Assembly (NCBI GenBank): GCA_964399085.1
Contig: CAYNPN010000005.1
Span: forward strand, 5,328-69,327
Length of the DNA: 64,000 nucleotides
Source: Candidatus Hadarchaeota archaeon
Lineage (GTDB): Archaea; Hadarchaeota; Hadarchaeia; Hadarchaeales; JAGGTB01
Reading direction: 5' to 3'
In this document: positions 12,216 to 63,235 of the stretch, one piece after another
How the letters are laid out: each line of letters starts with the position of its first letter
Position numbering within the stretch: the stretch's first letter is position 1
Translations under genes and position numbers: made by a program
The notes under the pieces: model-generated
Databases searched by the model: none
Told to the model about the DNA's origin: nothing
Seen by the model: the letters and a program-made list of their open reading frames with translations, nothing else

Positions 12216-12217
12216 CA

Positions 12218-15638: not shown

Positions 15639-15645
15639 CTGAGTT

Positions 15646-16086: not shown

Positions 16087-16250
16087 ACCTCGCTAATTTC
16101 ATATTAATCCAAACTCCTTCTATTCTTCATTTCTCACGCCTTGAAAAATTATACCTCAATTCCAGGATTTTGGGAGTCCGCCTATCCGGGTCCCCGATTT
16201 ACTCTCGCAATTTTTTTAGGGTATACAGAACACCAAAGAAGAGTGGTAAT

Positions 16251-17078: not shown

Positions 17079-17170
17079 ATTGCACGGAAAGTTTAGTCCG
17101 AGCAAGAAAGGCAGGGCTTGAACTTAAAATAGTGGAAAATAAAGATTTGATAGACTTGGGTGATTAGGAA

Positions 17171-28196: not shown

Positions 28197-28255
28197 AGGT
28201 ACCCCGGAATATGAAGCGGTTCAATTGGATAGATAACTCTCAATCTAAATTAAAA

Positions 28256-29131: not shown

Positions 29132-29132
29132 T

Positions 29133-29705: not shown

Positions 29706-31744
29706 CCGAACATCCCTCCAATTACGAGTAATGTATCTATGAGCTTGATGAAAATGAAGGGTGCTATTAAGCCCGTGCCACCGTAGATCAAAAGGTTCTT
29801 CCTAAGTAGCTTCGACGCGCTCTCGGCCTTGTATTCCACTCCTCGCATGGCCAAGGGGATCAAAAACGGAATTATCAGGGCATTATAGATTAGAGATGCA
29901 ATTATTGCACTTTGAGCGGAGTACAGACCCAGTATATTCATTTTTGAAAGCCCGGAAAGGGCCGTGCCTCCAGCACTAAGAATCGCCGGGACCAGAGCGA
30001 AATACCTCGAAACGTCGTTAGCTATGCTGAAGGTGGTCAGGGAGCCCCTGGTCATTAGAAGTTGCTTGCCTATGGCCACAACCTCTATCAACTTCGTAGG
30101 GTCGGAGTCAAGATCGACCATATTTCCGGCCTCCTTGGCGGCGTTGGTTCCGGCCTGCATCGCCAGCCCCACATCGGCCTTCGCGAGAGCAGGGGCATCA
30201 TTGGTACCATCTCCCGTCATTCCGACGAGTTTACCTTCCTCTTGAACCTTCTCGACGAGGTCTATTTTTTCCTCCGGTTTGAACTCGGCATAATATTCAT
30301 CTATGCCTGCCTTTTCGGCCACCGCTTTTGCAGTTCGCTCGTTATCGCCGGTGGCCATAATGGTCTTGACTCCCATCTTTTGAAGCTCTTCGATTCGATC
30401 CTGTATGCCGGGCTTTAACTCATCCTGAAGGTCGATCAGACCCACAACTTCTTTTCCCACCGACACTGCCAAGGGGGTACCACCCTTATCGGCGATTTCT
30501 CCCGCCTTCTCATCCAAATCACCGGGTACCGAATCGGAATATTCCTTTATCGCATCCACGGCTCCCTTTCTGACCTCAGTTCCATCGGAGAGGTCTATCC
30601 CGCTCATTTTAGTTTTCGCGGAAAACTCGATGAAATTATCCTCGGATAATTTATCCTCCTCGATGCTCACGTCCATGTCGTCAGCCAAGTTAATCACGGA
30701 CCTACCCTCCGGCGTCTCGTCGAAATAGGAGGCCTGAAGGGCCGCCGAGGCTATCTCGGACTCATCATGATCTCCCACGGGGACAAAGTTTTCGGCTGTC
30801 CTCTCGCCTGTGGTAATCGTCCCGGTTTTATCCAAGATTAGGGTATCCAAGTCTCCAGCCGACTCCACGGCCTTTCCTGTCTTGGCAATTACGTTATCTC
30901 TCGTGACGTTGGTCATGCCAGCTATACGAATGGTTGCCAGTAGTGCACCAATCGTGGTTGGCATAAGTCCCACGAGCAAGGCAATGAGATTTGCTATATC
31001 CACATCTAAACCGACGTAACTGCCGAAGAACCTCAGCGTAGTGACAGCCACAAGGTAAATGAAAGTAAAGCTCGCCAGCAGAAGCGTCATGGATATCTCG
31101 TTAGGTGTCTTCTGGCGAGAGGCCGACTCGACCAAGTTAATCATCTTGTCCAGGAAGGATTCTCCTGGCTCCGCAGTTACTTCGATCTTGAGTTGATCGC
31201 TCAGCACCTCCGTTCCCTCGGTAACCGAACTTCTATCTCCTCCACTTTCCCTGATAACCGGCTCCGATTCGCCGGTAATAGCCGATTCATCGACTGAAGC
31301 ACTCCCCTCCGTCACCGTCCCATCTCGAGGTATTAAATCTCCTTCCTCAACGTAGACTAAGTCTCCCTTTGATAACTCCTCGCCCCCGACTACCTCATAA
31401 TCACCCTCGGAAATCTCATCTAGTGATAAATCTTCAGAAAGTTTCTTGCCCTTGGTCTCGACCTGTAATTCCTTTAGGCTGTCTGCATGAGCCTCTCCCT
31501 CCAACTGAGCAAGAGACTCTGCATAATTGGCAAACAATACTGTGAATAATAGTAGACCCGTTATGATTCCATAATACCATTGAGCCTCAGTTCCCCGGAA
31601 AAAGGGAGGGTAAATGGTAAGAACAAGTGTCATAATCATTCCTATCTCGACTACGAACAATACCGGGTTTTTTATCAAGTAGCTGGGATCCAGTTTCCTG
31701 AGGGATTGCTTCACAGCTTCGATTTGTTTTTCCCAATCGACCAT
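29702..31744 (-). CDS. kdpB: K+-transporting ATPase subunit B (P-type)
   Basis: [18 protein letters not shown] and [21 protein letters not shown] are present. Confidence 0.95.
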
Positions 31745-33484
31745 CTATAGACCCCCAGCAAGTAATTCTCCAAGCGGGCCAAGAGCGAGAGAGGGAAGGA
31801 AAATAAGCCCACCTATAATTATCATCACTCCAACGAAAAGCAACAAGAATGAAAGACTCTCTACCTTCAAGGTCCCCTCGGTTATGGGTCGTCTTTTCTT
31901 ACTCGCCAACGATCCAGCTATAGCGATCTGACCGGTAATTGGAAGGAAGCGCCCCAGAAGGATTTGTATCCCATTCGTCAGGTTGAAGAACATGTTATTA
32001 TCCGCAAGTCCCTCGAAACCACTTCCGTTATTGGCGGAGGCCGAGAACATCTCGTACAAAATTTCCCCAAAACCCCGGAGCCCCGGATTGGTAATCGACT
32101 CCTGTCCGGCACCCGTAAGAATCGCCAGGGATGTCGGTATGAGTACGAGAGTAGGTAAGAGAAGAATAATAAGAGCGGCTATCCTCACTTCCATCCATTC
32201 AATTCTCTTGCCCAGATACTGCGGCGCACGACCTATCATGAGACCGGCGATGAAAACTGCAAGAAACAGATAGGTCATCAGGTTGAGGAGACCCACACCC
32301 AGACCATTGTAGAGGCAGTTCATGCTCATGCCCAAAAAGAGCGGCAAACTGCCCTGGGCCGTGAAGCTGTTTTGCATGCTGTTTACGGCACCGTTCGTGG
32401 TTGAAGTCGTGGAAACGCCCCATAGAGCGCTCAAGACGGGGCCAAAACGGACTTCCTTCCCCTCCATGTTTCCAACAGGTTGTATGACGGCCGCATTTTC
32501 GGTGGCGACATTTACTCCAGGATTTGGTTGGGTCTCCCCAGTTACCCCAACCAGAAGCAATCCCATAAAGAGGATGAAGAAAGCACCTATCAAGACCCCG
32601 GCGTGTAATCTTTTCCCTATCCACACACCAAATGCGTAAATCACTGCGATGGGAGCAGCCAAGAGAACCAGATTAAGTACCAGATTAGAAAGCACCGTCG
32701 GATTTTCGAAGGGGTGAGCGGCATTGGCGGCAAAGTAACCCCCACCGTTGGTCCCGAGAATCTTTATCGACTCTATCCCGGCCACCGGCCCGATCCTGAT
32801 AGCCTGCTCTCCTCCCTCAAGCGTCTGCACTGTGGTTTTTCCCGCGAAGGTCTGGGGGACTCCTTGAGAGACTAGAAATATTCCCAAAATTAAAGCTATC
32901 GGTATCAGAAACCTAACGGAGCCTCGAATTAGGTTCACGTAGAAGTTCCCCAGGTCGTCGTTTTCCTCATTGAGGATACCTTTTGTAAATCCGACAGCGA
33001 GACTGAGGCCCGTGGCCGCGGACATGAACATTGCCAGGCCGACGCCAAAGAGCTGGCTGAAGTAAGAGAGACTCTCACCGGCATAATGTTGCTGATTCGT
33101 GTTGGTCACAAAAGTTGTAGCGGTATGAAATGCCTGATCCCAGCTTAAGCCATCAAGCTGCAGCGGATTCATTGGTAAAAAATTTTGAAATTTGAAGATT
33201 AAGATTAGGACTAAAAACAGGACTCCATTGAAGACGAGGATGGAAATAAGATATTTTTTCCAATCCATGCCCTCGTCGGGATCGACCCCAATCAACCTGA
33301 AAATGAAGTTTTCTATAGGTGAAAATATCCGATCGAGAAAACCAAGCTTATTTATCCATCCCGGAGATTCACCCTTACTACCGGCCTGATCGCGGAAGGT
33401 CCAAGCCAGATATTCCCCCAAGGTGTATATTAGAAAGGCGAGGAAAGCAAAGAAAACCATCAATCCAAGACTGATTTCGAGCAT
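31745..33484 (-). CDS. kdpA: K+-transporting ATPase subunit A
   Basis: It is a polytopic protein of 579 aa with TNGGG-type selectivity-filter-like segments (GTNGGGYF, NNGSGF). It lies directly upstream of kdpB. Confidence 0.95.
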   Translation of the reverse strand: MLEISLGLMVFFAFLAFLIYTLGEYLAWTFRDQAGSKGESPGWINKLGFLDRIFSPIENFIFRLIGVDPDEGMDWKKYLISILVFNGVLFLVLILIFKFQNFLPMNPLQLDGLSWDQAFHTATTFVTNTNQQHYAGESLSYFSQLFGVGLAMFMSAATGLSLAVGFTKGILNEENDDLGNFYVNLIRGSVRFLIPIALILGIFLVSQGVPQTFAGKTTVQTLEGGEQAIRIGPVAGIESIKILGTNGGGYFAANAAHPFENPTVLSNLVLNLVLLAAPIAVIYAFGVWIGKRLHAGVLIGAFFILFMGLLLVGVTGETQPNPGVNVATENAAVIQPVGNMEGKEVRFGPVLSALWGVSTTSTTNGAVNSMQNSFTAQGSLPLFLGMSMNCLYNGLGVGLLNLMTYLFLAVFIAGLMIGRAPQYLGKRIEWMEVRIAALIILLLPTLVLIPTSLAILTGAGQESITNPGLRGFGEILYEMFSASANNGSGFEGLADNNMFFNLTNGIQILLGRFLPITGQIAIAGSLASKKRRPITEGTLKVESLSFLLLFVGVMIIIGGLIFLPSLALGPLGELLAGGL

Positions 33485-39942: not shown

Positions 39943-42201
39943 TTATTTGCCGAATTTCTGCTCCTTAAATTTCTCCACTATTTTTTCGATTAAATCCCTT
40001 CTCACGAACCCGTAACTGAAAAGAGGTAATTTTTTCAGCGGCAAATTCTTCATCCAGTAATCCAAATCATCTACCATTTCCATGAAATCCCGTGATATCT
40101 GTTCCTCGATGACTTCTCTACCGACATCGCTCTCCAGCCATCTATTCAGGGAGTCATTCTCGTCCAGGGATATTTCTCTTTCTCTCGTAGACTCCAGCCG
40201 GACGGTTTCCTCTAGGTGGATGTCCCGAGAAGAACTCCCGATCAATATTTCGTAATCACCAGTATCGACGACCCTGTCCCCTTCCTCCGGGTCGTAGTAT
40301 GCGAAATCCCTATTCCCGAGGGTGAATGTCACGGTCTCGCTCCCTCCAGGCGGCAACCCTACCTTTTTAAAACCTCTCAACTCCTTATCCGGGCGCGTCA
40401 ATTTTGGATCTCTAGCTCTGACATAGAGTTGAACAACTTCCTTCCCTCCGACATCGCCGATATTCTTGACCTTCACTGAAACCTTCAACTCTTCCCTATC
40501 CTTCATGATCTCCTTATCTAGCTCAATCTCCCGATACTCAAATTCGGTATAGGAAAGGCCAAACCCGAAAGGAAATTGCGGCTCAATCCCCTTCTCATCA
40601 TAGTATCTGTAGCCGATAAACAGGCCCTCGCTATATCTGACTTCCCCTCTCTCGCCCGGGAAATTTAGATAGGAAGGATTGTCCGACAGTTTCTGTGGGA
40701 AGGTCTCCTGGAGCCTCCCGGAAGGGTTTACCTCACCAAAGAGAACGTCGACTATTGCTCCTGCACCGGCCTGACCGGGCAACCAAGCCTCTAAGAGGGC
40801 CGAAACATCGTCCACCCAAGAGGAGATATCTACGGCGGAGCCGTTGTTCAGAACCACGACAATATCCGACTGAACCTCGGAAACCTTCTCGACCAATTTA
40901 ATCTGATTCTCCGGCAACTTCATATGAGGACGATCGAATCCCTCCGACTCAATCTCCCTCGACACGGAGAGGAACAAGATGGCCACATCGGTGCTTTCCG
41001 CTATTTCCGAGGCCTCTTCAATCGGCTTCTCGTCCGCTCCATTCTCTGTGGAGTAACCCTCGGCAAATTTGACCTCTATATCGTCGGTCCAACTCTCGAT
41101 CTCCTCCAGGGGGACATCGACCCTGGAAGCATTTACCTCCGAACTTCCACCGCCCTGAAATATCGGTTTCTCGGCGGTCCTGCCGATGACCGAAACCGAA
41201 TCGAGTTCCTCCCTATCCAACGGCAGGATATCGTTCTCGTTCATCAGCAGGACAATTCCCTCCGAGGCGACCTTTCGGGCCAGAGAGTGATGTCCCTCGG
41301 CGTCAACTGCTATCTCACGATTCTCCAGTTCCTTGGCCATGAAAACTATCTTCAGAATCTTGGCGAGGGCCTCGTCCAGAACTTCCTCGTCCAGCTCTCC
41401 CGACTCGACAGCCTCGATTATATCGTTCTCGTTGTCCGGGGAAGGCCCGGGCATCTCGAGGTCGAGGCCGGCCTTCAGCCCCTTCACCCTGTCATTCACC
41501 GCGCCCCAGTCGGACACGACAAATCCATCGAATCTCCACTCGTCCCTAAGGATATCGCTCAACAGGCGGGGATTTTCCGAACAATAAGTGCCGTTGACCT
41601 TGTTATAGGTGCACATCACGGTCCACGGTTCGGCCCTTCTGACCACGCGCTCGAAGGCCGGCAGGTAAATCTCCCGAAGCGGTCTCTCATCGACCTCGGC
41701 GCTAATCGTCATCCTATCGGTCTCCTGATTATTGCAGGTGAAATGTTTGAGGGAGGTTCCGACTCCCTGACTCTGGACGCCCTTCACGAAGGCGGTTCCC
41801 ATCTCTCCCGCCAAAAAGGGATCTTCGGAATAATACTCGAAATTTCGGCCGCAGAGTGGGGACCTCTTAATGTTTATTCCGGGAGCAAGCAGGATATGGA
41901 TTCCCAGATTTTGGCACTCCTTTCCGAGCGCCCGGCCCACTTTTTGTATCAATTTCCTGTTCCAAGTAGATGCCATCATCGAGGCGGTGGGGAAGCACGT
42001 GGTTATCCCGTCCTCCTCTGACCGGGGTAAACTCGAACTAACCCCATGTGGACCATCCGAGAGGATGATTTCGGGGATGTCGAGCCTATCCAAGGACTCC
42101 GTCTTCGCCCAATCGGCCCCCGAAAAGAGGGAGGCTTTCTCCTCCAAAATCATGCGGTCTATTAATTGCCTAACATCCTCGGGCATATAGGAATCCCTCA
42201 A
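39943..42201 (-). CDS. Glycoside hydrolase family 3 beta-glucosidase
   Basis: SDGPHGV, KHFTCNNQE and GFVVSDWGA (nucleophile Asp) are present, with a C-terminal Fn3-like domain. Confidence 0.9.
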   Translation of the reverse strand: MRDSYMPEDVRQLIDRMILEEKASLFSGADWAKTESLDRLDIPEIILSDGPHGVSSSLPRSEEDGITTCFPTASMMASTWNRKLIQKVGRALGKECQNLGIHILLAPGINIKRSPLCGRNFEYYSEDPFLAGEMGTAFVKGVQSQGVGTSLKHFTCNNQETDRMTISAEVDERPLREIYLPAFERVVRRAEPWTVMCTYNKVNGTYCSENPRLLSDILRDEWRFDGFVVSDWGAVNDRVKGLKAGLDLEMPGPSPDNENDIIEAVESGELDEEVLDEALAKILKIVFMAKELENREIAVDAEGHHSLARKVASEGIVLLMNENDILPLDREELDSVSVIGRTAEKPIFQGGGSSEVNASRVDVPLEEIESWTDDIEVKFAEGYSTENGADEKPIEEASEIAESTDVAILFLSVSREIESEGFDRPHMKLPENQIKLVEKVSEVQSDIVVVLNNGSAVDISSWVDDVSALLEAWLPGQAGAGAIVDVLFGEVNPSGRLQETFPQKLSDNPSYLNFPGERGEVRYSEGLFIGYRYYDEKGIEPQFPFGFGLSYTEFEYREIELDKEIMKDREELKVSVKVKNIGDVGGKEVVQLYVRARDPKLTRPDKELRGFKKVGLPPGGSETVTFTLGNRDFAYYDPEEGDRVVDTGDYEILIGSSSRDIHLEETVRLESTREREISLDENDSLNRWLESDVGREVIEEQISRDFMEMVDDLDYWMKNLPLKKLPLFSYGFVRRDLIEKIVEKFKEQKFGK

Positions 42202-46441: not shown

Positions 46442-47230
46442 ATGAAAGAACTAGGAAAATTATTCGTAGAATTAAGTAATCCAAACAGACTAAACATATT
46501 AGAAGCTCTCAGCCAAAAAGACGCCAAACTTTCCCAACTCTCAAATGAACTCGATATCCCTACTCCCGAAGTTTCCAGAAATCTCAACCGGTTATCTGAC
46601 TCCGGACTTGTCAAAAAGGCCTCGGACGGAAGGTATAAAATCAGTTCAGTCGGGGATCTTATCGTGGAAATTTTCCCCTATTTCAATTTTATATTTAAAA
46701 ATAGAGAGACTATGAACAATCATTCGATTTCCCCTATTCCAAAAGATCTAATATTCAGAGGTCATCCGCTAGCGGAGTGTGAAATCAAAAGTGGATCAAT
46801 AGAAGGATTCAACCTCTCTACAGAAAGGTTTAGAAAGACGAAAAAATTCTGCTGGATTATGTCGAAGGAAACCATGGAGTCATTCATCTCCCCCCTGGGA
46901 AGAGTGCTTCAAAGAGAAGCGGAGATGAAAGTTATTCTTCCCGAAAAGGAGATTGAAAAAACGTTTGAAATAATGAAAGATCGTGGGGATGGAGAAACGA
47001 AACTCAAAGAATGGGCTGACTCCGTAGAGTCTAGGGCTCTCGAGAAAATTGAACAAACCATATTAGTAGACGAAAACTCGGCCGAGTTTAATTTACCGGA
47101 TGTAGAAGGAGAAATAGATTACTCACTTACATTTTACTCTGAGAAAGAATCGTTCAGGCAGTGGGTCTGTGACATATTTGAACATTTTTGGAACAAAGCT
47201 AGACCAGTAAATGCCTCAATCTATCTTTAA
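46442..47230 (+). CDS. ArsR-type winged-helix regulator with a FilR1/DUF1724-like C-terminal domain
   Basis: NPNRLNILEALSQKDAKLSQLSNELDIPTPEVSRNLNRLSDSGLVKK is followed by a ~170-aa domain, as in archaeal FilR1-like regulators. Confidence 0.7.
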   Translation: MKELGKLFVELSNPNRLNILEALSQKDAKLSQLSNELDIPTPEVSRNLNRLSDSGLVKKASDGRYKISSVGDLIVEIFPYFNFIFKNRETMNNHSISPIPKDLIFRGHPLAECEIKSGSIEGFNLSTERFRKTKKFCWIMSKETMESFISPLGRVLQREAEMKVILPEKEIEKTFEIMKDRGDGETKLKEWADSVESRALEKIEQTILVDENSAEFNLPDVEGEIDYSLTFYSEKESFRQWVCDIFEHFWNKARPVNASIYL

Positions 47231-47326
47231 ATGAGTTTAATTTTTGGATATGGATATAGTTTCTTTTAATTCATTCAGAGAATCTTTTTATAATCTTGAA
47301 AAGATATATCTCTTCAAAGTGTTAAG

Positions 47327-48559
47327 ATGAATCCTAAAATAACCGTCCTTGGCGGAGTAGGATCCGTCGGAAGTACTGCAGTAGAAGCGCTTGCATCCAG
47401 CGGTATTCCTTCCGAGATTATCATTGGAGATATAAATATTGACAAAGCGGATGAGTTGGCTGAAGATTTAAACGACGAAAAGATATCCGCTGTCAAAGTA
47501 GATGCAAACAAACCGGAGAGCATTAAAAATGCTATAGAAGGATCGGATGTTGTACTGAACTGCGTAGGACCCTTCTACGAATACGGTCCGAAAATATTGA
47601 GAGCGGTGATAGACTCGGGTATAGACTACGTAGATATATGCGATGATTTGGACGCTACGGAAGAGCTACTCGAAATGAATGAAAGAGCCGAGGAAGCAGA
47701 TATAACCGCTCTTATAGGGATGGGAAGTTCGCCAGGATTTGCGAATTTACTGGTCAAATACTGTGTCGAAGATTTGCTTGACGAAGTTGATTCTATCGAT
47801 ATTTATCACGCTCATGGAGGAGAGGAAACCGAAGGCCCTGCAGTGGTTAAACATCGAATCCATTCGATGTCTATCCCAATACCCGTCTACGATAATAGTG
47901 AGTTTAAGAGAGTCGATCTATTTAGCGAAGAAGGAAAAGCCTACGAAGAAACCGTGAATTTCCGAGATTTGGGAACTTATGATGTTTACCTGTATCCCCA
48001 CCCTGAGACCATAACTCTACCCGAACATTTTGAAGGAGTAGAAAGAGTCACGAACCTGGGATTAGTTCTCCCCCCGGAATACGCAAATTACATAAAATCG
48101 ATGGTCAAATTGGGACTTACAGATGAGGAACCAATAAATGTTCAGGGGAAAGAGATAGCTCCTTTGAATTTTGCAGTTGCGTCCATATTATCAAAAAGAG
48201 AGGAATTCATGAAGGAGGCGGGAATTGAAGGTCCGAGAGGTTGCCTTAGAATTGACATTGGAGGAAGGAGCGAAGAGGGCGAAGAGAGGACCTATGTATT
48301 TTCGATGTCTTCAACGAGTCAGGGAATGGGAAGCGGAACTGGTATTCCAGCTGCCGTTGGGGCCCTTCTCATGGGGAAGGGTAGTGTAACCGGTAAAGGT
48401 GCACTTCCCCCGGAGGCCTGCGTCAACCCTACTGATGCACTCGATATCGCCGGGGAAATAATGCAAACCGACCAGGGAGAGGGTCTACCGGTCCACGCGG
48501 AGGTAAAAGACGAAAACGGTGACACAATTAGAGAATTAGATATCGGAGATTTGTTTTAA
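47327..48559 (+). CDS. Saccharopine dehydrogenase-family NAD(P)-binding oxidoreductase
   Basis: The N-terminal Rossmann motif is ITVLGGVGSVGS. Length and the GMGSSPG segment are typical of the Sacchrp_dh family. Confidence 0.75.
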   Translation: MNPKITVLGGVGSVGSTAVEALASSGIPSEIIIGDINIDKADELAEDLNDEKISAVKVDANKPESIKNAIEGSDVVLNCVGPFYEYGPKILRAVIDSGIDYVDICDDLDATEELLEMNERAEEADITALIGMGSSPGFANLLVKYCVEDLLDEVDSIDIYHAHGGEETEGPAVVKHRIHSMSIPIPVYDNSEFKRVDLFSEEGKAYEETVNFRDLGTYDVYLYPHPETITLPEHFEGVERVTNLGLVLPPEYANYIKSMVKLGLTDEEPINVQGKEIAPLNFAVASILSKREEFMKEAGIEGPRGCLRIDIGGRSEEGEERTYVFSMSSTSQGMGSGTGIPAAVGALLMGKGSVTGKGALPPEACVNPTDALDIAGEIMQTDQGEGLPVHAEVKDENGDTIRELDIGDLF

Positions 48560-48656
48560 CCATTTATTCATCTCATCAAAAATTCCCACTATTTAAGGCG
48601 AAACCGGGACTAACCCTAGGATGGGCAAATGGAATTTATAAATGAGAAGGTTTTGT

Positions 48657-50225
48657 ATGTCTGAGGACTATATTCTCGCACATGATGTAGGTACCGGGAG
48701 TGACAAAGCAGCTATTTTAGATACAAGGGCAAACCTCATCGACCATCAAACCAGCGAATACGAAGTTTCACATCCCGAAAAAGGTTGCGCCCTGCAGGAC
48801 CCGGAAGAGTGCTGGTGGGAGGCCATTATAGAAACCACGGGGGGGTTATTGGAAGTAAATGAAGTTGAGCCCTCCGAAATCGAAGGGATTGTTTTCTCTG
48901 CCCAAATGTCCGGTACTTTGCCGGTAGATGAAGACGGTTCCCCTCTGCTCCCCTGCATGATCTGGCTTGATACCAGAGCTTCGGTACAAGCCGAAGAAAT
49001 GCTTAGCGGGGCGATAGAAATCGGAGGATACGATGTATTCACCCTGGCAGAGTTCGTATGGATCACCGGCGGAGCTCCCGGGCTCGCGGGGAAGGACCCA
49101 ATTTCTAAAATTTTGTGGATCCGGGAAAATGAACCCGAGGTATATGAGCAGACCCACAAGTTCTTGAACGTCAAAGATTTTCTAATTCACAAAAGCACCG
49201 GAAACTTTGTGACTAGCGAGGATGATGCAAACCTCACCTGGTTGATGGACATTAGAACCAAGGAATGGTCGGACGTTCTCTGTGAAAAATATGGAGTAAA
49301 TATGGATAAGTTGCCTAAAATTAAAGAATCTCCCGAAATAGCCGGTGAACTAACCCCTAAAGCAGCAAATGACCTCGGGCTCGAAACTGGAACCTCAGTC
49401 GTCGTGGGGAGTGGAGATGTAACATCCGCCGCAGTGGGTTCTGGAAGCGTTGGTGAAAAGGAAACTCACGGATACATAGGGACGAGCAGTTGGCTTGGAA
49501 GCCATACCTCCGACAGAAGAGGGGACCTGAGCCACTATATAGGGAGTATTTGTAGTGCCAATCCCCAAAAATATCTCTGCATTGCGGAGCAGGAAAACGC
49601 AGGCGGTTGTCTAGAATGGATAAAAAATCAGATGTACAAGAGGGAAATGATAAGGTACGAGGAAAAGGTGGAGGAAATATACCAGCTTTTTGATCGCATT
49701 GTGGAGGATGTCGAGCCCGGCTCAAAGGATTTGATTTTTACTCCCTGGATTTATGGCGAACGCGCTCCCTTAGACGATCATAGCGTGCGAGGGGGTTTCC
49801 ATAACTTAAGCCTCGACCATTCCAGAGAACATCTTCTCAGAGCCGTCTTTGAAGGCGTGGCTTTCAATTTGAAATGGGCCCTGAAATATCAAGAGGATTT
49901 AATCGGAAAAGTCGAGGGGATAAACTTTGTCGGGGGTGGAGCTAGCTCGGATGTCTGGTGTCAGATATTTGCGGATGTCCTGAACAGAAGAATCAACAAG
50001 GTTCAGAATCCCAGGGAAGCGGGAGTGAGAGGTGCTGCGATGATTGCCGCAGTCGGGCTGGGACATATCGAAAAGTTCGAAGATGTCAAAGAGCTCGTGG
50101 AAATAGAGAAAAGCTTCACTCCGAATTCCGAGAACCGGGAGATCTACGACGGATTGTTCGAGGAATTCAAGGAGATTTACTGGAATAACAAAGAGATGTA
50201 CGAGAGGTTGAATGAAATCCCTTAA
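48657..50225 (+). CDS. FGGY-family carbohydrate kinase
   Basis: ILAHDVGTGSDKAA (phosphate-1), a two-domain length of ~520 aa, and FVGGGASSDVWCQIFADVL are present. Confidence 0.85.
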   Translation: MSEDYILAHDVGTGSDKAAILDTRANLIDHQTSEYEVSHPEKGCALQDPEECWWEAIIETTGGLLEVNEVEPSEIEGIVFSAQMSGTLPVDEDGSPLLPCMIWLDTRASVQAEEMLSGAIEIGGYDVFTLAEFVWITGGAPGLAGKDPISKILWIRENEPEVYEQTHKFLNVKDFLIHKSTGNFVTSEDDANLTWLMDIRTKEWSDVLCEKYGVNMDKLPKIKESPEIAGELTPKAANDLGLETGTSVVVGSGDVTSAAVGSGSVGEKETHGYIGTSSWLGSHTSDRRGDLSHYIGSICSANPQKYLCIAEQENAGGCLEWIKNQMYKREMIRYEEKVEEIYQLFDRIVEDVEPGSKDLIFTPWIYGERAPLDDHSVRGGFHNLSLDHSREHLLRAVFEGVAFNLKWALKYQEDLIGKVEGINFVGGGASSDVWCQIFADVLNRRINKVQNPREAGVRGAAMIAAVGLGHIEKFEDVKELVEIEKSFTPNSENREIYDGLFEEFKEIYWNNKEMYERLNEIP

Positions 50226-50257
50226 AGATCGGAAGCTTATGGAGAGGTTTACTCAGG

Positions 50258-51019
50258 ATGGAAGTTGAAGTCTCAATCGGCGGCCCGGAAAAATTGGACG
50301 GAACTCTGGTATTGGTGGACGTCTATAAATCCAGCACTGCCATCACCGTAGCCCTAGAAAACGGTGGCAAATTTGTACTCCCCTTCGCAGATGAGGAGAA
50401 AGCCAGAGATGCGAGAAAAAATTGGGATGACGGGGAAGCTACCCTGGCAGGTGAAAAAATCGGGATGAAGATTGATGGCTTCGATATGAACATTTCTCCA
50501 AGAGAAATGAGTGAAGAAAATGTAGAAAACCAAGTGTTGATTTATAAGTCCGACAATCTAACGCGGATTATCGAAAAGTGCAAGGACGCCGAAGAGGTTC
50601 TCATCGGAGGTTTGATTAACGCAAAAGCAGTCGGCAAATACCTCAACGAAACCGAACCCGAAAGGGTGGAAATCATCGCCTGCGGGACCTATAACAAGGA
50701 TACGATCGGCGAATTTCTGGAAATACCCTGCGACTCGCACAATGAAGTCGGTATAGAGGATGTAATTGGCGCCGGATCGATTTGCAGTTATTTAGATGGC
50801 GATTACTTCTCCGATCTCGCGCTATTGGCTGTTTTAGCGTACGAAAATCAGGATTGGAAGGAGAAGGTCAAGGAGGGATGTGTGATTCGTGCCCTGCAGA
50901 AAGTAGGTGACGAGAAAGATATCCCTCTATGTCTCACGGAGAATAAAATCGATACAATTCCGACTCTGGATGGAGATCGGATCGTGAAAATGGTTCATAA
51001 AGGTGTTAAACGGAGGTGA
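50258..51019 (+). CDS. ComB (2-phosphosulfolactate phosphatase) family protein
   Basis: VDVYKSSTAI, GEKIGMKIDGFDMNISP, LIGGLINAKAV and IEDVIGAGSI follow the ComB family pattern. Confidence 0.7.
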   Translation: MEVEVSIGGPEKLDGTLVLVDVYKSSTAITVALENGGKFVLPFADEEKARDARKNWDDGEATLAGEKIGMKIDGFDMNISPREMSEENVENQVLIYKSDNLTRIIEKCKDAEEVLIGGLINAKAVGKYLNETEPERVEIIACGTYNKDTIGEFLEIPCDSHNEVGIEDVIGAGSICSYLDGDYFSDLALLAVLAYENQDWKEKVKEGCVIRALQKVGDEKDIPLCLTENKIDTIPTLDGDRIVKMVHKGVKRR

Positions 51020-51025
51020 AATTCA

Positions 51026-52327
51026 TTGACTAAACTCCCATCTAACCTAGACGGTATAGATATCGAGAACCACATAGTCGCTACTTATTACATCGAAACA
51101 CCATTCGACGAAATTACTCCCGTTGCAGACGCTTTCGCCAAGGAACAATCAACCGGGACTTGGACAGACGTCCCCATCGAAAACACCGAAATGGTCGAAA
51201 AGAGAACTGCCAAAGTGACGGAGATTCGGAAGCTCCCCATCGATCTAGAAGGAGCCAACGCGTGTTATCTCCAATTGGCCTTTCCAGTGGACAACATTCC
51301 GCCCGAGTTTTCAACTCTTCTCGCATCTGTAACTGGCAACATAATGATGTTCTCTCGAAACAAGTGGGCGATTAAACTGACGGACATCAGATTTCCGGAG
51401 GCATGGCTGTCGAACTTTGAAGGGCCTCAGTTCGGAATCGAGGGCCTACGGAATGAGCTCGGTGTCCCGGAGAGGCCACTGATAAACAACATGATCAAAC
51501 CCTGTACGGGACACGACGTAGAAACCCACGTGGAACTGTTCCGGGAAGCCGCTTATGGAGGTATAGACGTGATTAAAGACGACGAATTATTGACCGATCC
51601 GGAATACAATCCCTTCTTCGAAAGGGTAGAAGGATGTATGGAGGCGGTTGAAGAAGTAGAGGAAGAGACTGGTGAAAAAACACTCTACACCGCAAATGTG
51701 ACAGGGGCAATAAAGGACCTCAGGGAAAGAGCAAGAAAAGCAGTTGATAAAGGAGTTAACGCCCTGATGCTGGATAGTTCTGTAGGACTCAGCGGGCTGA
51801 GGATGTTGACAGAGGACCAAGAGATAAATGTGCCTATCCTCTATCATCCAGACTTCATGGGTAATTTTTGCGGGGCCGAAAAAGCGGGGATAGATATGGG
51901 TGCATACACCAAGATGGCCAGAATAGCAGGAGCCGACATATTGTTCACCACGGACTACAGAGGCAAATTCCCGGGTGCGACAAAGGATCTGGCGAAACGT
52001 TGCCTTACCGCCGTTACGCAGGATTTACACGACATTCCCAAAGCCATGCCCTTCGTCACGGGCGGAGGAGTTCACCCCGGAGTTGTACCGGGATTGATAG
52101 GCGACTACGGTGAAGACATAATGATCGGCGTAGGAGGGGGACTTCACGGGCACCCAGACGGCCCTCGTGCCGGCGGCAGAGCTCTCAGACAGGCCATTGA
52201 TGCCGCAGTAAACGAGATTCCGTTGGAGGAAGCCGCAGAAGAACATCCCGAGTTGCAAGCCGCATTAAATAAGTGGGGAATCATCGAATCCTCCAAGGAC
52301 GCCGAAGAACTGTACGAAACCAGATAG
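51026..52327 (+). CDS. RuBisCO large-subunit homologue, probably a RuBisCO-like protein (form IV) and not a carboxylase
   Basis: EQSTGTWT, GPQFGIEG, GIDVIKDDE and GGGLHGHPDGPRAGGRALRQA are shared with form III enzymes. However, KPKxG is IKPCTG, the H-R dyad region is YHPDF, and SGG is TGGG. The start is TTG, 6-7 nt after GGAGGTGA. Confidence 0.85.
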   Translation: MTKLPSNLDGIDIENHIVATYYIETPFDEITPVADAFAKEQSTGTWTDVPIENTEMVEKRTAKVTEIRKLPIDLEGANACYLQLAFPVDNIPPEFSTLLASVTGNIMMFSRNKWAIKLTDIRFPEAWLSNFEGPQFGIEGLRNELGVPERPLINNMIKPCTGHDVETHVELFREAAYGGIDVIKDDELLTDPEYNPFFERVEGCMEAVEEVEEETGEKTLYTANVTGAIKDLRERARKAVDKGVNALMLDSSVGLSGLRMLTEDQEINVPILYHPDFMGNFCGAEKAGIDMGAYTKMARIAGADILFTTDYRGKFPGATKDLAKRCLTAVTQDLHDIPKAMPFVTGGGVHPGVVPGLIGDYGEDIMIGVGGGLHGHPDGPRAGGRALRQAIDAAVNEIPLEEAAEEHPELQAALNKWGIIESSKDAEELYETR

Positions 52328-52430
52328 AGACGGCCTCTCCAGGAAAGGATTGAAAGGACATTCGAATATTCCTGGTCTCTCTTTCTCTTTTTTATTTTTA
52401 CGTGAGAAAAATTAGGGAATCGGATCTATT

Positions 52431-57370: not shown

Positions 57371-58024
57371 GTGAAAATAATTATTATTGGAGGCGGAAGA
57401 ACGGGTCGAGGCCTAGCTGATAGGTTGTTAAAAACTGGCCACGAAACCACTATCCTCGAGTCGGACGAGGAAAAGGCCCAAGAGTTGGCTAGTTCCCTTG
57501 ACGCTCTGGTAATAAAGGGAAGTGGATCGGACATAGATGACTTAAGGGACGCGGACGCCGAAAACGCCGACGCCCTCGCCGCTGTGACGGGATCTGACGA
57601 GGTGAACTTTATGGCCTGCAAGCTCGCCAGAGAGGTAGGGGTCGATAGGATAATCACGAGGGTAAACGATAGTAGCCATGCAGAAATGTTTGAGGATGAA
57701 GGCGCCGATGTTATAATAAATCCTATTGATGCCTCCATCGGCCTATTTGAAAGAGCCATAACGGGCCCTGAAATTTACGGAATGTTAAGTTTGGGAGGAA
57801 GCAATGCCGACGTCATAGAGGTTTCGGTGTCCGAGGGATCAAAGGCCATGGGGAAGACCATCGAAGAACTCAACATACCGGACCACTGTACGATATCGGT
57901 AATAACGCGGGATGATGAGCTAGTCTCTCCCAGAGGGAGAACTAAGTTTCGGGAGGGAGATCGTGTAATCTTGGCTGGAAAACCCGAAGACGTTATTGAC
58001 ACAGGAGAGCTGTTCAGGAAGTAG
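57371..58024 (+). CDS. trkA: Trk potassium uptake protein, NAD-binding subunit
   Basis: IIIIGGGRTGRGLA is a Rossmann motif and a C-terminal TrkA_C domain is present. The start is GTG. Confidence 0.9.
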   Translation: MKIIIIGGGRTGRGLADRLLKTGHETTILESDEEKAQELASSLDALVIKGSGSDIDDLRDADAENADALAAVTGSDEVNFMACKLAREVGVDRIITRVNDSSHAEMFEDEGADVIINPIDASIGLFERAITGPEIYGMLSLGGSNADVIEVSVSEGSKAMGKTIEELNIPDHCTISVITRDDELVSPRGRTKFREGDRVILAGKPEDVIDTGELFRK

Positions 58025-58094
58025 AGAGGTTAAAAGGAGTCATTTCTTTTCAAATTAAAAAGGGGCCTTCAGATAGCAGAACTGGGATGATATC

Positions 58095-59546
58095 ATGCTT
58101 TACTTCTTGGGTCTCACGCTGATAGTTATTGGGGGAGTGATGCTCGCCCCGGTACCTATCGCCCCCCTCCTGGGCGAAACTAGCCTGATTCCCTATTTCC
58201 TGATTCCGTCCGTAATAGCGTTCTCCTTGGGGATCCTGTTTTGGAGGGTGTTTGAGGAGGATGAACTTACTTACGGCGAGGCAATGATCCTGGCCGCTCT
58301 CTCCTTCCTTTTGATATCACTTTTCGGAAGCTTTCCATTCATATGGGGGGCCGGTTTGGATCCCCTCAGCGCATATTTTGAAAGCATGTCCGGTTTCACG
58401 ACGACCGGCCTGACGATGTTCCAAATGGCGGGGCCAGGGATGATCAATGCTCCTGAGACTATACTTCTCTGGCGGAGTCTGACCCAGTGGGTTGGAGGCC
58501 TAGGGATAATGATTCTTTTCCTATCGACAATTCTCGGCGCGGGCAGGATTTCCAAAAGATTATTTTCGGCGGAGGGTGGAGGAGGGAGAATCGGGCCTGT
58601 AGATGAAAGGGGTCCCGAGATTACGATTAGCTCGATAGCGAGGTCAACATGGAAAATTTACGTCCTCTTCACCTCGTTGGCAGCTCTGATTTTTTTGCTG
58701 GCGGGAATGCCGTTCTTCGAGTCGATTAACCACGCGATGACCGCACTCGCCACCGGAGGATTTTCGGTAACCTCCGACAGTTTCGCATCTTACTCGAACC
58801 TGATTCTCGTGGTCGCTTGCTTTCCCATGATCGCGGGCGCAACAAGTTTTACCACTCATATTCGGCTTACGAAGGGCGATCTCAAGGCAATAATCGAAAG
58901 TCACGAAGTCAAACTAATGCTTTTGATAATAGCCATAGCCACCGTAATACTCTCCTCAAATCTGGGGTGGGTAAATGCCCTCTTCTCCTCGGTCACGGCT
59001 CAGACGACGGTAGGATTCTCCAGCGTTGGGGAGGCTGGCCTGATACACGGCCCTGGCTGGGGAGCCATTCAGAAGTCCTTGATAATCGTGCAAATGGTGA
59101 TAGGTGGTGGTTTCGGGTCGACGGCAGGAGCTATAAAACTAATTCGTACTATAATACTTGGAGCCGCCCTTTACTGGCTTATAAAAAGAGCCATTCTTCC
59201 GGAAAGGGCCGTAGTACCGGTGAAACTTGGAGGGGAAACTATCTCGCAGGATACGATCCTCCAAATATCTATATTCAGTTTTTCGTATGTGTTCCTCCTA
59301 GTCGTGGGTTCAATGATAACGATGGGCGCCATGCCCCAGCATAGCGCCATCAACTGTATTTTCGACTCGGCCTCGGCCCAAGGCACTGTCGGATTATCCG
59401 CCGGTGTTACTGGAATTGGCATGCCCGCCGTCGTCAAAGTTCTCTTCATAATTCAGATGTGGATCGGACGATTGGAAGTCATCCCTGCCATTGTACTTTT
59501 CGGCTATATTATTAGGAAGATCCCCCGCCGTGAAAAATCATTTTAA
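58095..59546 (+). CDS. trkH: Trk potassium uptake protein, membrane subunit
   Basis: It is polytopic with repeated pore-loop segments (SGFTTTGLT, LATGGFS, AQTTVGFS, ASAQGTVGLS). Confidence 0.9.
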   Translation: MLYFLGLTLIVIGGVMLAPVPIAPLLGETSLIPYFLIPSVIAFSLGILFWRVFEEDELTYGEAMILAALSFLLISLFGSFPFIWGAGLDPLSAYFESMSGFTTTGLTMFQMAGPGMINAPETILLWRSLTQWVGGLGIMILFLSTILGAGRISKRLFSAEGGGGRIGPVDERGPEITISSIARSTWKIYVLFTSLAALIFLLAGMPFFESINHAMTALATGGFSVTSDSFASYSNLILVVACFPMIAGATSFTTHIRLTKGDLKAIIESHEVKLMLLIIAIATVILSSNLGWVNALFSSVTAQTTVGFSSVGEAGLIHGPGWGAIQKSLIIVQMVIGGGFGSTAGAIKLIRTIILGAALYWLIKRAILPERAVVPVKLGGETISQDTILQISIFSFSYVFLLVVGSMITMGAMPQHSAINCIFDSASAQGTVGLSAGVTGIGMPAVVKVLFIIQMWIGRLEVIPAIVLFGYIIRKIPRREKSF

Positions 59547-60957: not shown

Positions 60958-61710
60958 TTATAGGTCTTCTTGCTCTTTGAACCAATTCTTGAAAGCTTGT
61001 TTAATCTGTATCTTTTCTTCCTTTGACGCTTTATCAAACTCGGAATAGGTCATATCCATTTTTTTGAGAAATTCTATGAATATTTTTTCAGCCCTTATAG
61101 GTTGCTTTTTCAGATCTTCCCATTTACTCCCCATCTCACGCGTTCTTTCTTCCGTTTTTCTTATTTTCTCGAGCAAATCGTGCGGTTCGACCAACCTGTG
61201 ATTCCCTTCTTCATCGAAAGTAAACATCTGATTGTAATGTCTGGATTCCTCGTCCTTCACTATGTAGATACAAAATCCCTCAGGTATAGATACCCTATCG
61301 TATTCGCTCATCCGTTGCATGGGTGCCCCATCTGGGGCTCTCTTCCCGTACTCTTCAATTATCTGTTTAATTGAATCTAACTCCTTTTCCAAATCCTCGA
61401 TAGAATTCATAGATAAATCGAAAGAGTTCTCCACTAACGCGACAAGATTGTCATCGAAAAGCTGAAAAAGGTCATCATATTGAGTATTTTCAATTCCACC
61501 TGCCTCGGCAGTTTCCTGAATATCCTCAAGACTATCCTCAATACCCTTTAAATCATCCTCATTAATCTCTCTATAATTAAGTAGATTTCTAACATTATTC
61601 ACTTCGCGATCTATTTCCTCGGCTATGTCCTCACTTACTTTCTCTCTCCTGTAATCTCGGATATCTTCCAGAGTAGAAATAATATTATCAATTGTACCTA
61701 CAATACCCAT
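60958..61710 (-). CDS. Hypothetical acidic protein (250 aa)
   Basis: The long ORF has genome-typical acidic, helical composition and no recognised motif. Confidence 0.55.
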   Translation of the reverse strand: MGIVGTIDNIISTLEDIRDYRREKVSEDIAEEIDREVNNVRNLLNYREINEDDLKGIEDSLEDIQETAEAGGIENTQYDDLFQLFDDNLVALVENSFDLSMNSIEDLEKELDSIKQIIEEYGKRAPDGAPMQRMSEYDRVSIPEGFCIYIVKDEESRHYNQMFTFDEEGNHRLVEPHDLLEKIRKTEERTREMGSKWEDLKKQPIRAEKIFIEFLKKMDMTYSEFDKASKEEKIQIKQAFKNWFKEQEDL

Positions 61711-61933: not shown

Positions 61934-63235
61934 CTATACAAACCTTAGGATTATAATGATTAGTATTGCCACAGTCACTCCGGCTCCGATCCATAACCAA
62001 GGCAAACCTTCTTGGGATTCATCCGGAGGTATAACAGGTTCTTCCTCAAAGTTTGCGGTAATCACCTTATTCTCGTCCATAGTCACCGTAATCTCTTTTT
62101 CTTCGGAAGAGACATCTCCACTCCATTCTACGAACTCCCAGTTATTGTCCGGAACAGCATTAATCGTTACTTCTTCACCTTCCTCGTAAGTATGGGTTCC
62201 AAGAGGAGGATCAGTAGTTCCTTCACCCTCAACCTTTATCGTGAGTTCTTGTTCAAAAGCCGCACCCTTTACGGTGAACTCCTCAGTTTTCACAATATTA
62301 TCCCAGGCCATGAATTGAAACTCGTAGTCTCCTTCCTCCAGATAACCGAGGGAATAGGAGTTTTCAACTGTCTTGATTGCCTGCGGAGAAGGGCCGGTGT
62401 CCTTTTCAATCTCAGCATTCACGGAAAACACATTATTGTTTTGAGAGACATCACCCCAGTCCTTCACACGATAACCCATGTCAGAGAAAGTGATAGTAAC
62501 TTCACTAGTGATTTCATTGTCTTCCGTAGGGGATGGTGGAGAAATATCGATCTCTACTTCCTCGTTATCAGGGACGTAAGGCACCCATTCCGAGTATTCG
62601 ACCACAAGTTCTGGAGAACAAGAATCGTTCTCTCTGGATCTGAACATTTTCATCTTTCTTGGGCTTCCCTTATTTTCGTTTGTCATCTTGACCAAGAAGC
62701 CATGATTGGTTTCTAACATGCTTTTCACGGCATCGGTGACGTCCCACGAAACGTAGTGAGGCGGTTTTGGAAATCCTACTGGTATAGTGTCTATTGGGGA
62801 AGTAGTGTAGGAGGGGGCGTTATTCCAAGTAACGCCAGTCTCCGTCCAAGAACCATTCAGAGAATGGACGCTGACCTCGTAGTTATCTTCATCATCAAAG
62901 TTGTACAAGTACAGATTGAGCGTAGCGTTATCAATCTCCGCACCCAAAGGGATAGTCGAGAGATCGAACTTTAGAAGAGACCTCGAGGTCCAATTATCGG
63001 GGTAGTCAACTACCCACAGAGTATTTTCTTTTCCAAAATTTTTGGACGGTTCCAGTTTTTCTATGTACGAGTCTTTTGTAGGAGTTAAGGTTGCTTTCTG
63101 GGAAGAGACGTTCTCATTATTGCTTGTTTCATTTGCAGCAGCACTTTCAATGGATATAGAATAAGCGCTCAATACGCCCAGAACCACAACGGCGACGATG
63201 ATGAAGGTGGTTATTTTCTTCCGCCCGAAATTCAT
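61934..63235 (-). CDS. Secreted/anchored surface protein with a DNRLRE-like domain and a divergent InlB B-repeat-like domain
   Basis: It has an N-terminal signal/TM. Then comes SYIEKLEPSKNFGKENTLWV...SRSLLKFDLSTIPLGAEIDNATLNLYLY (DNRLRE-type). It continues with VEGEGTTDPPLGTHTYEEGEEVTINAVPDNNWEFVEWSGD and a C-terminal TM. Confidence 0.65.
   Translation of the reverse strand: MNFGRKKITTFIIVAVVVLGVLSAYSISIESAAANETSNNENVSSQKATLTPTKDSYIEKLEPSKNFGKENTLWVVDYPDNWTSRSLLKFDLSTIPLGAEIDNATLNLYLYNFDDEDNYEVSVHSLNGSWTETGVTWNNAPSYTTSPIDTIPVGFPKPPHYVSWDVTDAVKSMLETNHGFLVKMTNENKGSPRKMKMFRSRENDSCSPELVVEYSEWVPYVPDNEEVEIDISPPSPTEDNEITSEVTITFSDMGYRVKDWGDVSQNNNVFSVNAEIEKDTGPSPQAIKTVENSYSLGYLEEGDYEFQFMAWDNIVKTEEFTVKGAAFEQELTIKVEGEGTTDPPLGTHTYEEGEEVTINAVPDNNWEFVEWSGDVSSEEKEITVTMDENKVITANFEEEPVIPPDESQEGLPWLWIGAGVTVAILIIIILRFV

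Follow-up and report, generated by a model that had tools for sequence, protein, structure and literature searches.

A form IV RuBisCO-like protein encoded with an FGGY-family kinase and a saccharopine-dehydrogenase-like oxidoreductase in a Hadarchaeota gene cluster that probably marks an undescribed sugar-phosphate pathway

Organization of the gene cluster

A group of five genes was analysed in a 64,000-nucleotide stretch of the genome of a Candidatus Hadarchaeota archaeon (assembly GCA_964399085.1, contig CAYNPN010000005.1, positions 5,328 to 69,327). This whole stretch is called the window, and all coordinates refer to it. The five open reading frames (ORFs) of 46442-52327 all lie on the + strand in the ORF list of the window and are co-directional, and the last one encodes a RuBisCO-like protein (RLP). 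It is preceded by genes for a saccharopine-dehydrogenase-like (SDH-like) oxidoreductase, an FGGY kinase and a homologue of the ComB phosphatase. What is new here is that a form IV RLP occurs in a conserved gene context that points to a pathway not described before. The features of the locus are as follows.

46442..47230, + strand: ArsR/HVO_A0261-type winged-helix regulator, 262 residues (Pfam HTH_5, 42 bits; HVO_A0261_N, 38.6 bits)
47282..47305, + strand: candidate promoter/operator, inverted repeat ATCTTTT-N10-AAAAGAT with TATA-like TTTATAAT (sequence reading)
47327..48559, + strand: saccharopine-dehydrogenase-family oxidoreductase, 410 residues (Pfam PF03435, Sacchrp_dh_NADP, and PF16653, Sacchrp_dh_C)
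48657..50225, + strand: FGGY-family carbohydrate kinase, 522 residues, alternative start at 48642 (Pfam FGGY_N, 176 bits; FGGY_C, 100 bits)
50258..51019, + strand: ComB-family Mg-phosphatase homologue of a divergent subfamily, 253 residues (Pfam PF04029, 2-ph_phosp, 171.6 bits)
51026..52327, + strand: form IV RLP, 433 residues, TTG start (Pfam RuBisCO_large, 161 bits; RuBisCO_large_N, 56 bits)
52339..52399, no strand assigned: candidate terminator, inverted repeat CCAGGAA/TTCCTGG followed by an oligo-T run, TTTTTTATTTTT (sequence reading)

The intergenic gaps along the cluster, from the regulator through the SDH-like, FGGY and ComB-like genes to the RLP gene, are 96, 82-97, 32 and 6 nt. A preliminary description of this DNA had placed four tightly spaced, co-directional genes behind an ArsR-type regulator, and all five ORFs were recovered in these positions with concordant Pfam assignments.

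Active-site residues and structural relatives of the RuBisCO-like protein

Alignment with HMMER against two references, the type III RuBisCO 8dht and G. kaustophilus MtnW (2oek), gave an unambiguous residue map of the RLP. As a control on the alignment, the residue count in 2oek lands on the published K98, K147 and K173. Residues are given here in RuBisCO numbering, with the number in the present protein in brackets. Relative to 8dht, the RLP retains E60 (E40), T65 (T45), W66 (W46), N123 (N105), K175 (K158), K201 (K184), D203 (D186), E204 (E187), H294 (H274), K334 (K314), G380/381 (G347/348) and the GGG at 370-372. Seven positions are replaced, namely T173 (M156), K177 (C160), R295 (P275), H298 (M278), H327 (F307), L335 (F315) and S379 (G346). 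Most of the lost residues serve to hold the distal (C5) phosphate in RuBisCO. Since K177, R295, H298, H327 and S379 are all replaced, the distal phosphate of ribulose 1,5-bisphosphate would have no binding site, while the proximal phosphate (P1) site and the enolisation machinery are intact. The domains and fold, the loss of residues needed for carboxylation of ribulose 1,5-bisphosphate and the kept carbamate/Mg2+ site are those of form IV RLPs in general, and the alignment identifies the product of the last operon gene as a non-carboxylating form IV RLP.

The motifs quoted in the preliminary description (GIDVIKDDE, IKPCTG, YHPDF, LFTTDYRGK, TGGG and GGGLHGHPDGPRAGGRALRQA) are all present, and the loss of the Lys177, Arg295 and His327 equivalents and the changed SGG that it had read by eye were reproduced by the HMMER alignments to 8dht and 2oek. 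Its assignment to form IV also agrees with the residue map and with the form III model TIGR03326, which scores 310 bits against a cutoff of 497. Two details required correction. LFTTDYRGK had been listed as a changed His327 region; the His is indeed lost (F307), but the Lys of YRGK is the retained loop-6 K334 (K314). The list of retained residues was right about the carbamate motif but incomplete, as E60 (E40), N123 (N105) and K334 are also kept. The form IV assignment is thereby refined, in that the protein keeps an E60/N123/K334 triad that MtnW lacks.

Further NCBIfam comparisons gave 335 bits for the MtnW model PRK09549 (cutoff 409), 281 bits for the MtnW model TIGR03332 (cutoff 514) and 206 bits for NF042437 (cutoff 700), the model of OiaX, which is the 3-oxo-isoapionate-4-phosphate decarboxylase of the apiose pathway and itself an RLP. 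As no equivalog cutoff is reached, the protein is not classed as form III, MtnW or OiaX; OiaX identity was rejected on this score, and MtnW membership on the Asn that replaces the catalytic Lys and on the different gene context.

An AlphaFold2 model built from a 28-sequence alignment has a pLDDT of 90.8. It fits MtnW, type III RuBisCO and the C. tepidum RLP equally well (TM 0.84-0.89, 31-35% identity; TM 0.85-0.88 for MtnW and type III RuBisCO), and the protein therefore represents a clade without a solved structure. The entries 1ykw and 2qyg (31-33% identity), which we take to be IV-Photo, and 3nwr (27%), presumably IV-NonPhoto, are no closer to it than form III is.

A family of RuBisCO-like proteins with cysteine at position 177

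An exhaustive HMMER search of 1.84 billion cluster representatives returned 2,070 RuBisCO-superfamily clusters; among the 150 nearest representatives of 50%-identity clusters, 45 have K175 together with C177. Homologues of the RLP drop to 52% identity and then form a broad plateau near 45% that includes Thermacetogenium, Moorella, Caldiserica, Chloroflexota, Thorarchaeota and other Asgard archaea. The family is marked by an invariant M-I-K-P-C at the K175/K177 motif and spans Bacteria and Archaea; K158-P159-C160 and G313-K314 are invariant in 28 diverse sequences, a signature that recurs at about 65 loci, and K184, D186 and E187 are likewise invariant within the family. About 70 of 89 sequences carry E60, N123, M173, K175, C177 (rarely N), K201, D203, E204, H294 and K334. 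True MtnW proteins have G60, K123, V/M177 and S334 instead, with mtnX and mtnB adjoining in Paenibacillus-type loci. Members come from Chloroflexota, Bathyarchaeia, Asgard archaea, Bacillota, Desulfobacterota and halophilic archaea. By their shared residue pattern, the Cys177 RLPs are a large, coherent family that has no assigned reaction.

The RLPs of the halophile clade, to which the window belongs, form one group with 100% bootstrap support. Their sister is an environmental group that includes locus L005 (loci are designated by L numbers) and is found amid genes for a sugar ABC transporter, a zinc alcohol dehydrogenase (Zn-ADH), an FGGY kinase and DeoC.

Several variants were seen around the family. 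In a neighbour-joining tree rooted on type III RuBisCO, the true MtnW clade nests within the Cys177/N123 family, so MtnW may be a derived offshoot, although both the rooting and the method are weak. A RuBisCO homologue from the metagenome-assembled genome (MAG) 'archaeon isolate 128-326' (L071:8001-9209, JALUUU010000180.1) keeps R295, H327, K334, L335 and S379, as carboxylases do, with Cys at K177 and Phe at H298, and is a possible intermediate between form III and the Cys177 RLPs. Two Bacillota MAGs (L068, L073) have Asn for Cys at the K177 position, in clusters of FGGY, class-III aminotransferase (AT3) and RLP genes in the order FGGY>AT3>RLP. At L073 the RLP gene is followed by an MtnX-cluster HAD phosphatase, the second RLP-phosphatase adjacency in the family. 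Finally, the RLPs of L009, L035 and L061 adjoin PEP_hydrolase-like (PF09370) TIM-barrel genes and a 410-residue partner rather than FGGY.

Conservation of the gene neighbourhood

As lower bounds, 28 of 65 family loci encode an FGGY homologue (150 bits or more) no further than 3 kb from the RLP gene, and at 13 of them the two genes are direct neighbours, as opposed to none within 3 kb at 14 true MtnW loci. At 11 loci an orthologue of the SDH-like gene (460-540 bits, 58-63% identity) is among the adjoining genes. The order is FGGY>RLP>SDH in Dehalococcoidia and SDH>FGGY>RLP in Bathyarchaeia and Actinomycetota, and the orthologue also occurs at L053, likely a Thorarchaeota-type MAG labelled 'uncultured archaeon'. 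The reciprocal search gave the same picture. On metagenome contigs of sufficient length, SDH-like homologues of about 360 bits or more were all followed by FGGY and usually by RLP, often following a TetR gene, whereas weaker homologues had neither gene nearby.

In other branches of the family a different enzyme takes the third place: a GSAM-like class-III aminotransferase (FGGY>AT3>RLP in Smithellaceae, Desulfomonilia and Bacillota), a GlpABC-like polyol-phosphate dehydrogenase with a SorC regulator, or a Zn-ADH or short-chain dehydrogenase (SDR). These clusters also encode transporters (PTS, MFS or ABC) and aldolases (class II or DeoC). What the loci have in common is a kinase (or PTS) together with an enzyme that forms a carbonyl and with the RLP. 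A HisC-like aminotransferase near Asgard and Baldrarchaeota RLPs was considered as a further partner; as it passes the hisC cutoff (345 vs 277 bits), it was set aside as a true hisC and a coincidental neighbour.

The ComB-like gene has a much narrower distribution. No ComB homologue was found in 80 genome loci and 76 SDH-anchored metagenome loci outside the halophile clade, so that ComB was rejected as a general partner of the family, its linkage being confined to halophilic archaea. Within this clade the linkage holds on at least five diverged contigs with different flanks and 56-85% ComB identity. The order is SDH>FGGY>ComB>RLP in L001 and L004 and SDH>FGGY>ComB><FGGY2>RLP in L164, and L165, L166, L169 and L170 are partial but consistent with a ComB-containing order. 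A stand-alone ComB-like copy is present in an MSBL1 single-cell genome. Because the cluster recurs on diverged contigs with different flanks, the juxtaposition of its genes is not due to chance.

Both points on which the preliminary description had staked its reading, the active-site losses and the conserved neighbourhood, were thus found, the first by alignment and the second among orthologues. The FGGY and SDH-like linkage proved broad, extending to Chloroflexota, Bathyarchaeia, Actinomycetota and Thorarchaeota, but that to ComB, which had been given equal standing, is a trait of one small archaeal clade.

Other genes recur near the clusters. An FMN reductase lies beside the cluster in the archaeal locus L004:6631-10506 and in the Chloroflexota-type loci L090-L106 (30% identity over 175 residues); a PAS sensor kinase is also near the cluster in both, but the alignment of the two kinases covers only 15% of the length at 27% identity. 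Iron alcohol dehydrogenase (Fe-ADH) and TetR genes recur in L090-L106.

The kinase, the oxidoreductase and the phosphatase homologue

The identification of the kinase as an FGGY protein stands, with a refined start: the ATG at 48657 (MSEDY...) is likelier than the codon at 48642 and matches the orthologues and the public gene calls. Its best NCBIfam model is XylB (TIGR01312), at 332 bits below a cutoff of 380, and its nearest PDB entry is E. coli xylulokinase 2itm. The first FGGY genes of two halophile loci (L164:1291-2868 and L166:3025-4614) have a conserved N-terminal region, including DVGTGSDK, that has no in-frame ATG, GTG or TTG, and gene callers shorten the product to 437-451 residues. 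N-terminal truncation was rejected here as a start-codon calling artefact, with no frameshift or recoded stop; a non-canonical start such as CTG is likely. Both loci carry a second, divergently oriented FGGY paralogue of a Chloroflexota subtype.

The SDH-like protein contains a GxGxxG motif and an invariant Asp35 after strand β2, which weakly suggests the use of NAD. It scores 63 bits with the carboxynorspermidine synthase model NF043000 (cutoff 800), and no equivalog cutoff is reached. The AlphaFold2 model has a pLDDT of 92.3, and its nearest structures are, in order, carboxyspermidine dehydrogenases, L-lysine dehydrogenase, saccharopine reductases/dehydrogenases, BioU and homospermidine synthase. 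These close relatives (TM 0.65-0.8) all act on C-N bonds, and sugar-type dehydrogenases such as scyllo-inositol dehydrogenase are only much weaker matches, with TM below ~0.45. Given these relatives and the aminotransferases that replace the enzyme in orthologous clusters, amine/carbonyl interconversion is its most likely role. The family label in the preliminary description is accordingly kept but narrowed to relatives of amine/imine redox enzymes. Alternatively, it might act as a polyol-phosphate dehydrogenase, by analogy to EryB of the Brucella erythritol pathway.

In the ComB-like protein the PF04029 match covers profile positions 11-224 of 226, and the family invariants D21, E66, S80-P81, N100, E167-D168 and D221 are kept. 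It falls below all NCBIfam equivalog cutoffs (best models 123 vs 330 bits and 121 vs 175 bits), shows the subfamily changes VDVYKSS, NISP and SDNLT and contains a 14-16 residue 'IPCD' insertion. Only 14 clusters among 5.8 billion proteins resemble it. Its kept invariant residues and altered motifs point to a phosphatase that is probably active but has another substrate.

Putative expression signals and genomic surroundings

The 7-bp palindrome with TATA-like TTTATAAT lies ~40 nt 5' of the SDH-like gene and is the single perfect copy in the window, with no statistical significance; it is a candidate promoter/operator. Shine-Dalgarno-like sequences precede the ComB-like gene (GGAGAGG) and the RLP gene (GGAGGTGA), whose TTG start is 7 nt past GGAGGTGA and 6 nt past the ComB-like stop. 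The inverted repeat and oligo-T run after the RLP gene, located between it and a convergent M32 peptidase gene, may act as a terminator; a scan for bacterial-type terminators made no call at 52339..52399, the model being bacterial and the host archaeal. The ArsR-type protein, whose gene is co-directional and 96 nt upstream of the SDH-like gene, is tentatively the regulator of the operon. A homologue (166 bits) adjoins the FGGY-RLP cluster of the Baldrarchaeota MAG L036, but as none is found at the orthologous cluster L004, its membership in the operon is tentative too.

The DNA of the window is also present in NCBI assembly GCA_905333535.1 and in two Logan assemblies, and no close relatives were found in a database of annotated plasmids. 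The encoded proteome is acidic, with 16.5% D+E against 10.5% K+R. Two regions, 25422-33484 (- strand) and 57371-59546 (+ strand), contain a P-type cation ATPase and a Usp protein by Pfam, three adjacent ORFs taken as KdpABC by eye and a TrkA/TrkH pair from public gene calls; this heavy content of potassium-handling genes fits a halophile. A GH3 glycoside hydrolase (Glyco_hydro_3, Glyco_hydro_3_C and Fn3-like domains; public gene call) is encoded ~5 kb upstream of the operon at 39943-42201 (- strand), a weak hint of sugar metabolism nearby.

Elsewhere in the window, a lysine/diaminopimelate (DAP) biosynthesis cluster occupies 10866-18235 (+ strand), comprising a class-III aminotransferase, a DAP-decarboxylase-type PLP enzyme, an aspartokinase with ACT domains and DapB by Pfam; DapA and an Asd-like product were assigned by eye in the ORF list. 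A single Rfam hit reaches the gathering threshold, an archaeal RNase P RNA (3446-3734, + strand; RF00373, 211 bits), which marks the window as archaeal. A surface-type protein at 61934-63235 (- strand) has CBM96, an InlB B-repeat-like domain and a weak disaggregatase-related repeat, and the ORFs at 21499-22542 and 60958-61710 have no Pfam match.

Proposed pathway and alternative explanations

The reading preferred here, with a probability of about 0.6, is that the cluster is an operon that converts a small sugar-like compound via a monophosphorylated keto intermediate. The FGGY kinase would phosphorylate a ketose, polyol or amino-polyol, and the NAD-type SDH-like enzyme would make or consume a neighbouring carbonyl, most likely by amine/imine redox. 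The RLP would bind the single phosphate in its retained P1 site, and its carbamylated K184-Mg2+ centre (D186, E187) together with K158, H274 and possibly C160 would form an enediolate. Reprotonation elsewhere on this intermediate would amount to isomerisation, epimerisation or tautomerisation. A last step, removal of the phosphate from the product or a by-product by the translationally coupled ComB-like enzyme, would be peculiar to the halophile clade.

Since the RLP belongs to a family without an assigned reaction, the operon probably marks an undescribed sugar-phosphate pathway. Few RLPs have been characterised, and these act as enolase, isomerase, decarboxylase/transcarboxylase or oxygenase (PMC10176493; PMC6389311). 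Nothing relevant came out of literature searches that paired RLPs with FGGY kinases, ComB, saccharopine dehydrogenases or erythrulose, the main RLP reviews and the apiose paper lying outside their scope, in line with the preliminary description, which knew of no RLP pathway with such a gene set. The MSBL1 genome paper mentions only a form-III-like RuBisCO.

Several observations weigh against the proposed pathway. Characterised RLPs (enolase, isomerase, decarboxylase, oxygenase; PMC10176493) supply the analogy on which its inferred steps are built. A simple proton transfer would not need E60, N123 and K334, and their retention hints at a more RuBisCO-like chemistry. It is also unusual for a catabolic operon to encode both a kinase and a phosphatase. 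The SDH+FGGY loci L111, L114 and L120 have no RLP within reach, and many of the loci in which linkage was counted are short contigs. Moreover, the RLP clade of the window is not sister to the RLPs of the SDH>FGGY>RLP clusters in Chloroflexota and Bathyarchaeia, which implies reshuffling of the module and means that the reactions may differ between clades.

An enolase-phosphatase pair of the MtnW/MtnX kind is one alternative. The RLP would tautomerise a 2,3-diketo-1-phosphate in the manner of MtnW, the ComB-like protein would hydrolyse the resulting enol-phosphate, and the SDH-like enzyme or aminotransferase would provide an MtnE-like final amination in an oxygen-independent salvage akin to that of methionine. 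MtnW is indeed the closest characterised homologue (PRK09549, 335 bits; 2oek, E=5e-78; TM 0.87), the phosphatase gene stops 6 nt before the RLP start, an MtnX-cluster phosphatase follows the RLP at L073, and aminating enzymes are recurrent partners. However, the general base of MtnW, K98 at the N123 position, is Asn here (N105) and throughout the family and Lys in the 14 true MtnW loci, while G60 and S334 of MtnW are E and K in the family. The RLP also scores under both MtnW cutoffs, MtnK, MtnA, MtnB and MtnD were not found in the window, and FGGY is absent from all of the true MtnW loci. To our knowledge, FGGY kinases do not act on methylthioribose. The MtnW/MtnX-like scheme is regarded as improbable.

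The cluster might instead serve biosynthesis in a halophile, in which a sugar is phosphorylated and the RLP moves its carbonyl, after which the SDH-like enzyme carries out a reductive amination and the ComB-like phosphatase sets free an amino-polyol or similar solute. A kinase with a dedicated phosphatase fits an ATP-driven, irreversible synthesis, the addition of ComB is limited to contigs whose proteins are acidic and of halophile type and to an MSBL1 relative, the SDH-like fold family performs reductive aminations, and no transporter gene was found among the ORFs and Pfam domains of the operon. On the other hand, Asp35 weakly suggests NAD rather than NADPH, and the related clusters carry TetR, SorC, MFS, ABC or PTS genes typical of catabolism. 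A biosynthetic role is likewise unlikely.

The retained E60/N123/K334 triad is the basis of a third proposal. Since the RLP keeps E60, N123, K175, K201, H294 and K334, with which RuBisCO adds CO2 and stabilises its intermediates, and has lost only the distal-phosphate site, it could be a 'monophosphate RuBisCO' that makes or breaks a C-C bond, that is, carboxylates, decarboxylates or hydrolytically cleaves the ketose-1-phosphate-type product of the kinase. In halophiles, the ComB-like phosphatase would then clear a released two-carbon 2-phospho-acid such as 2-phosphoglycolate. Characterised ComB enzymes hydrolyse 2-phospho-2-hydroxy acids, which would suit this scheme; as the subfamily motifs are altered, however, this specificity is not transferable. 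E40, N105 and K314 are kept family-wide, and RLP decarboxylases, transcarboxylases and an oxygenase provide precedents (PMC10176493). Against these points, neither K177 nor S379 is kept, by far the most family loci have no ComB, and the class II/DeoC aldolases of several relatives suggest that other enzymes cleave C-C bonds. The chance that the proposal is correct appears slim. If true, the RuBisCO superfamily would gain a C-C bond chemistry that is new to it and widespread among anaerobic Bacteria and Archaea.

A genuine form III carboxylase of AMP/nucleoside salvage, for which the large-subunit fold, ~35% identity to type III and the archaeal host might speak, is contradicted by the replacement of K177, R295, H298, H327 and S379, by the HMM cutoffs and, as the preliminary description had noted, by the lack of AMP phosphorylase, ribose-1,5-bisphosphate isomerase and phosphoribulokinase domains in the 64-kb window (checked by Pfam on the operon, its flanks and 20 further ORFs, and otherwise from public gene calls or by eye), and is very improbable.

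The proposed pathway is of interest because only a handful of RLPs have an assigned reaction (PMC10176493) and each assignment so far has revealed a new pathway. The concrete set of partners, FGGY with an SDH-like enzyme or aminotransferase and, in halophiles, ComB, makes the function testable with four soluble enzymes. As the family is about equidistant from MtnW and form III and has more of the carboxylase machinery than MtnW, its reaction bears on how carboxylation arose from, or decayed into, enolisation. The analysis also flags genes that metagenome surveys may count as 'RuBisCO' or 'methionine salvage'.

Comparison with known systems

Type III RuBisCO (8dht, 3a12, 2d69) shares with the RLP its fold, 32-35% identity, archaeal occurrence, E60, T65, W66, N123, K175, K201, D203, E204, H294, K334 and the P1 glycines. 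It differs at K177, R295, H298, H327 and S379 and in having AMP-salvage partner genes, which the cluster lacks. MtnW/YkrW, the 2,3-diketo-5-methylthiopentyl-1-phosphate (DK-MTP-1-P) enolase (2oek, 2zvi, 4nas), is the best match in both sequence and structure (34-40% identity, TM 0.87). The two have in common K175, the carbamylated Lys, D203, E204, H294, Pro at 295, the loss of H298 and H327 and an adjoining phosphatase gene. In contrast to MtnW, the RLP has Asn for the catalytic Lys at N123, keeps E60 and K334 (Gly and Ser in MtnW) and has Cys at 177, and its gene context is FGGY and SDH-like rather than mtnK/A/B/X/D.

The ComB-like protein shares the full-length PF04029 domain and the invariant acidic and Ser-Pro residues with ComB, the 2-phosphosulfolactate phosphatase of coenzyme M biosynthesis (1vr0). 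It differs by R to K, GNSP to NISP and TTNGT to SDNLT changes and by the insertion of 14-16 residues, and its gene has no comA, comC or comDE nearby but sugar-kinase and RLP genes instead. The SDH-like enzyme shares the two-domain fold (TM ~0.65-0.8) and GxGxxG site of carboxy(nor)spermidine dehydrogenase, L-lysine dehydrogenase and saccharopine reductase. Its identity to solved PF03435/PF16653 members is only 14-22%, however, and its relatives form a tight family, 58-78% identical across phyla, whose genes invariably adjoin those of FGGY kinases. The operon contains no polyamine or lysine genes.

The Brucella ery operon encodes the FGGY kinase EryA, the GlpD-like dehydrogenase EryB and the SorC-type regulator EryD, followed by isomerases. 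The proposed pathway resembles it in scheme, in the sequence of a kinase, a dehydrogenase that makes a keto group beside the phosphate-bearing carbon and an enediol-type isomerisation, and RLP genes of the Firmicutes branch of the family have FGGY, GlpABC-like and SorC genes as neighbours. In the cluster described here, the isomerase would be an RLP rather than an enzyme of the EryC, TpiA2 or RpiB type, and an SDH-like enzyme and a phosphatase are present.

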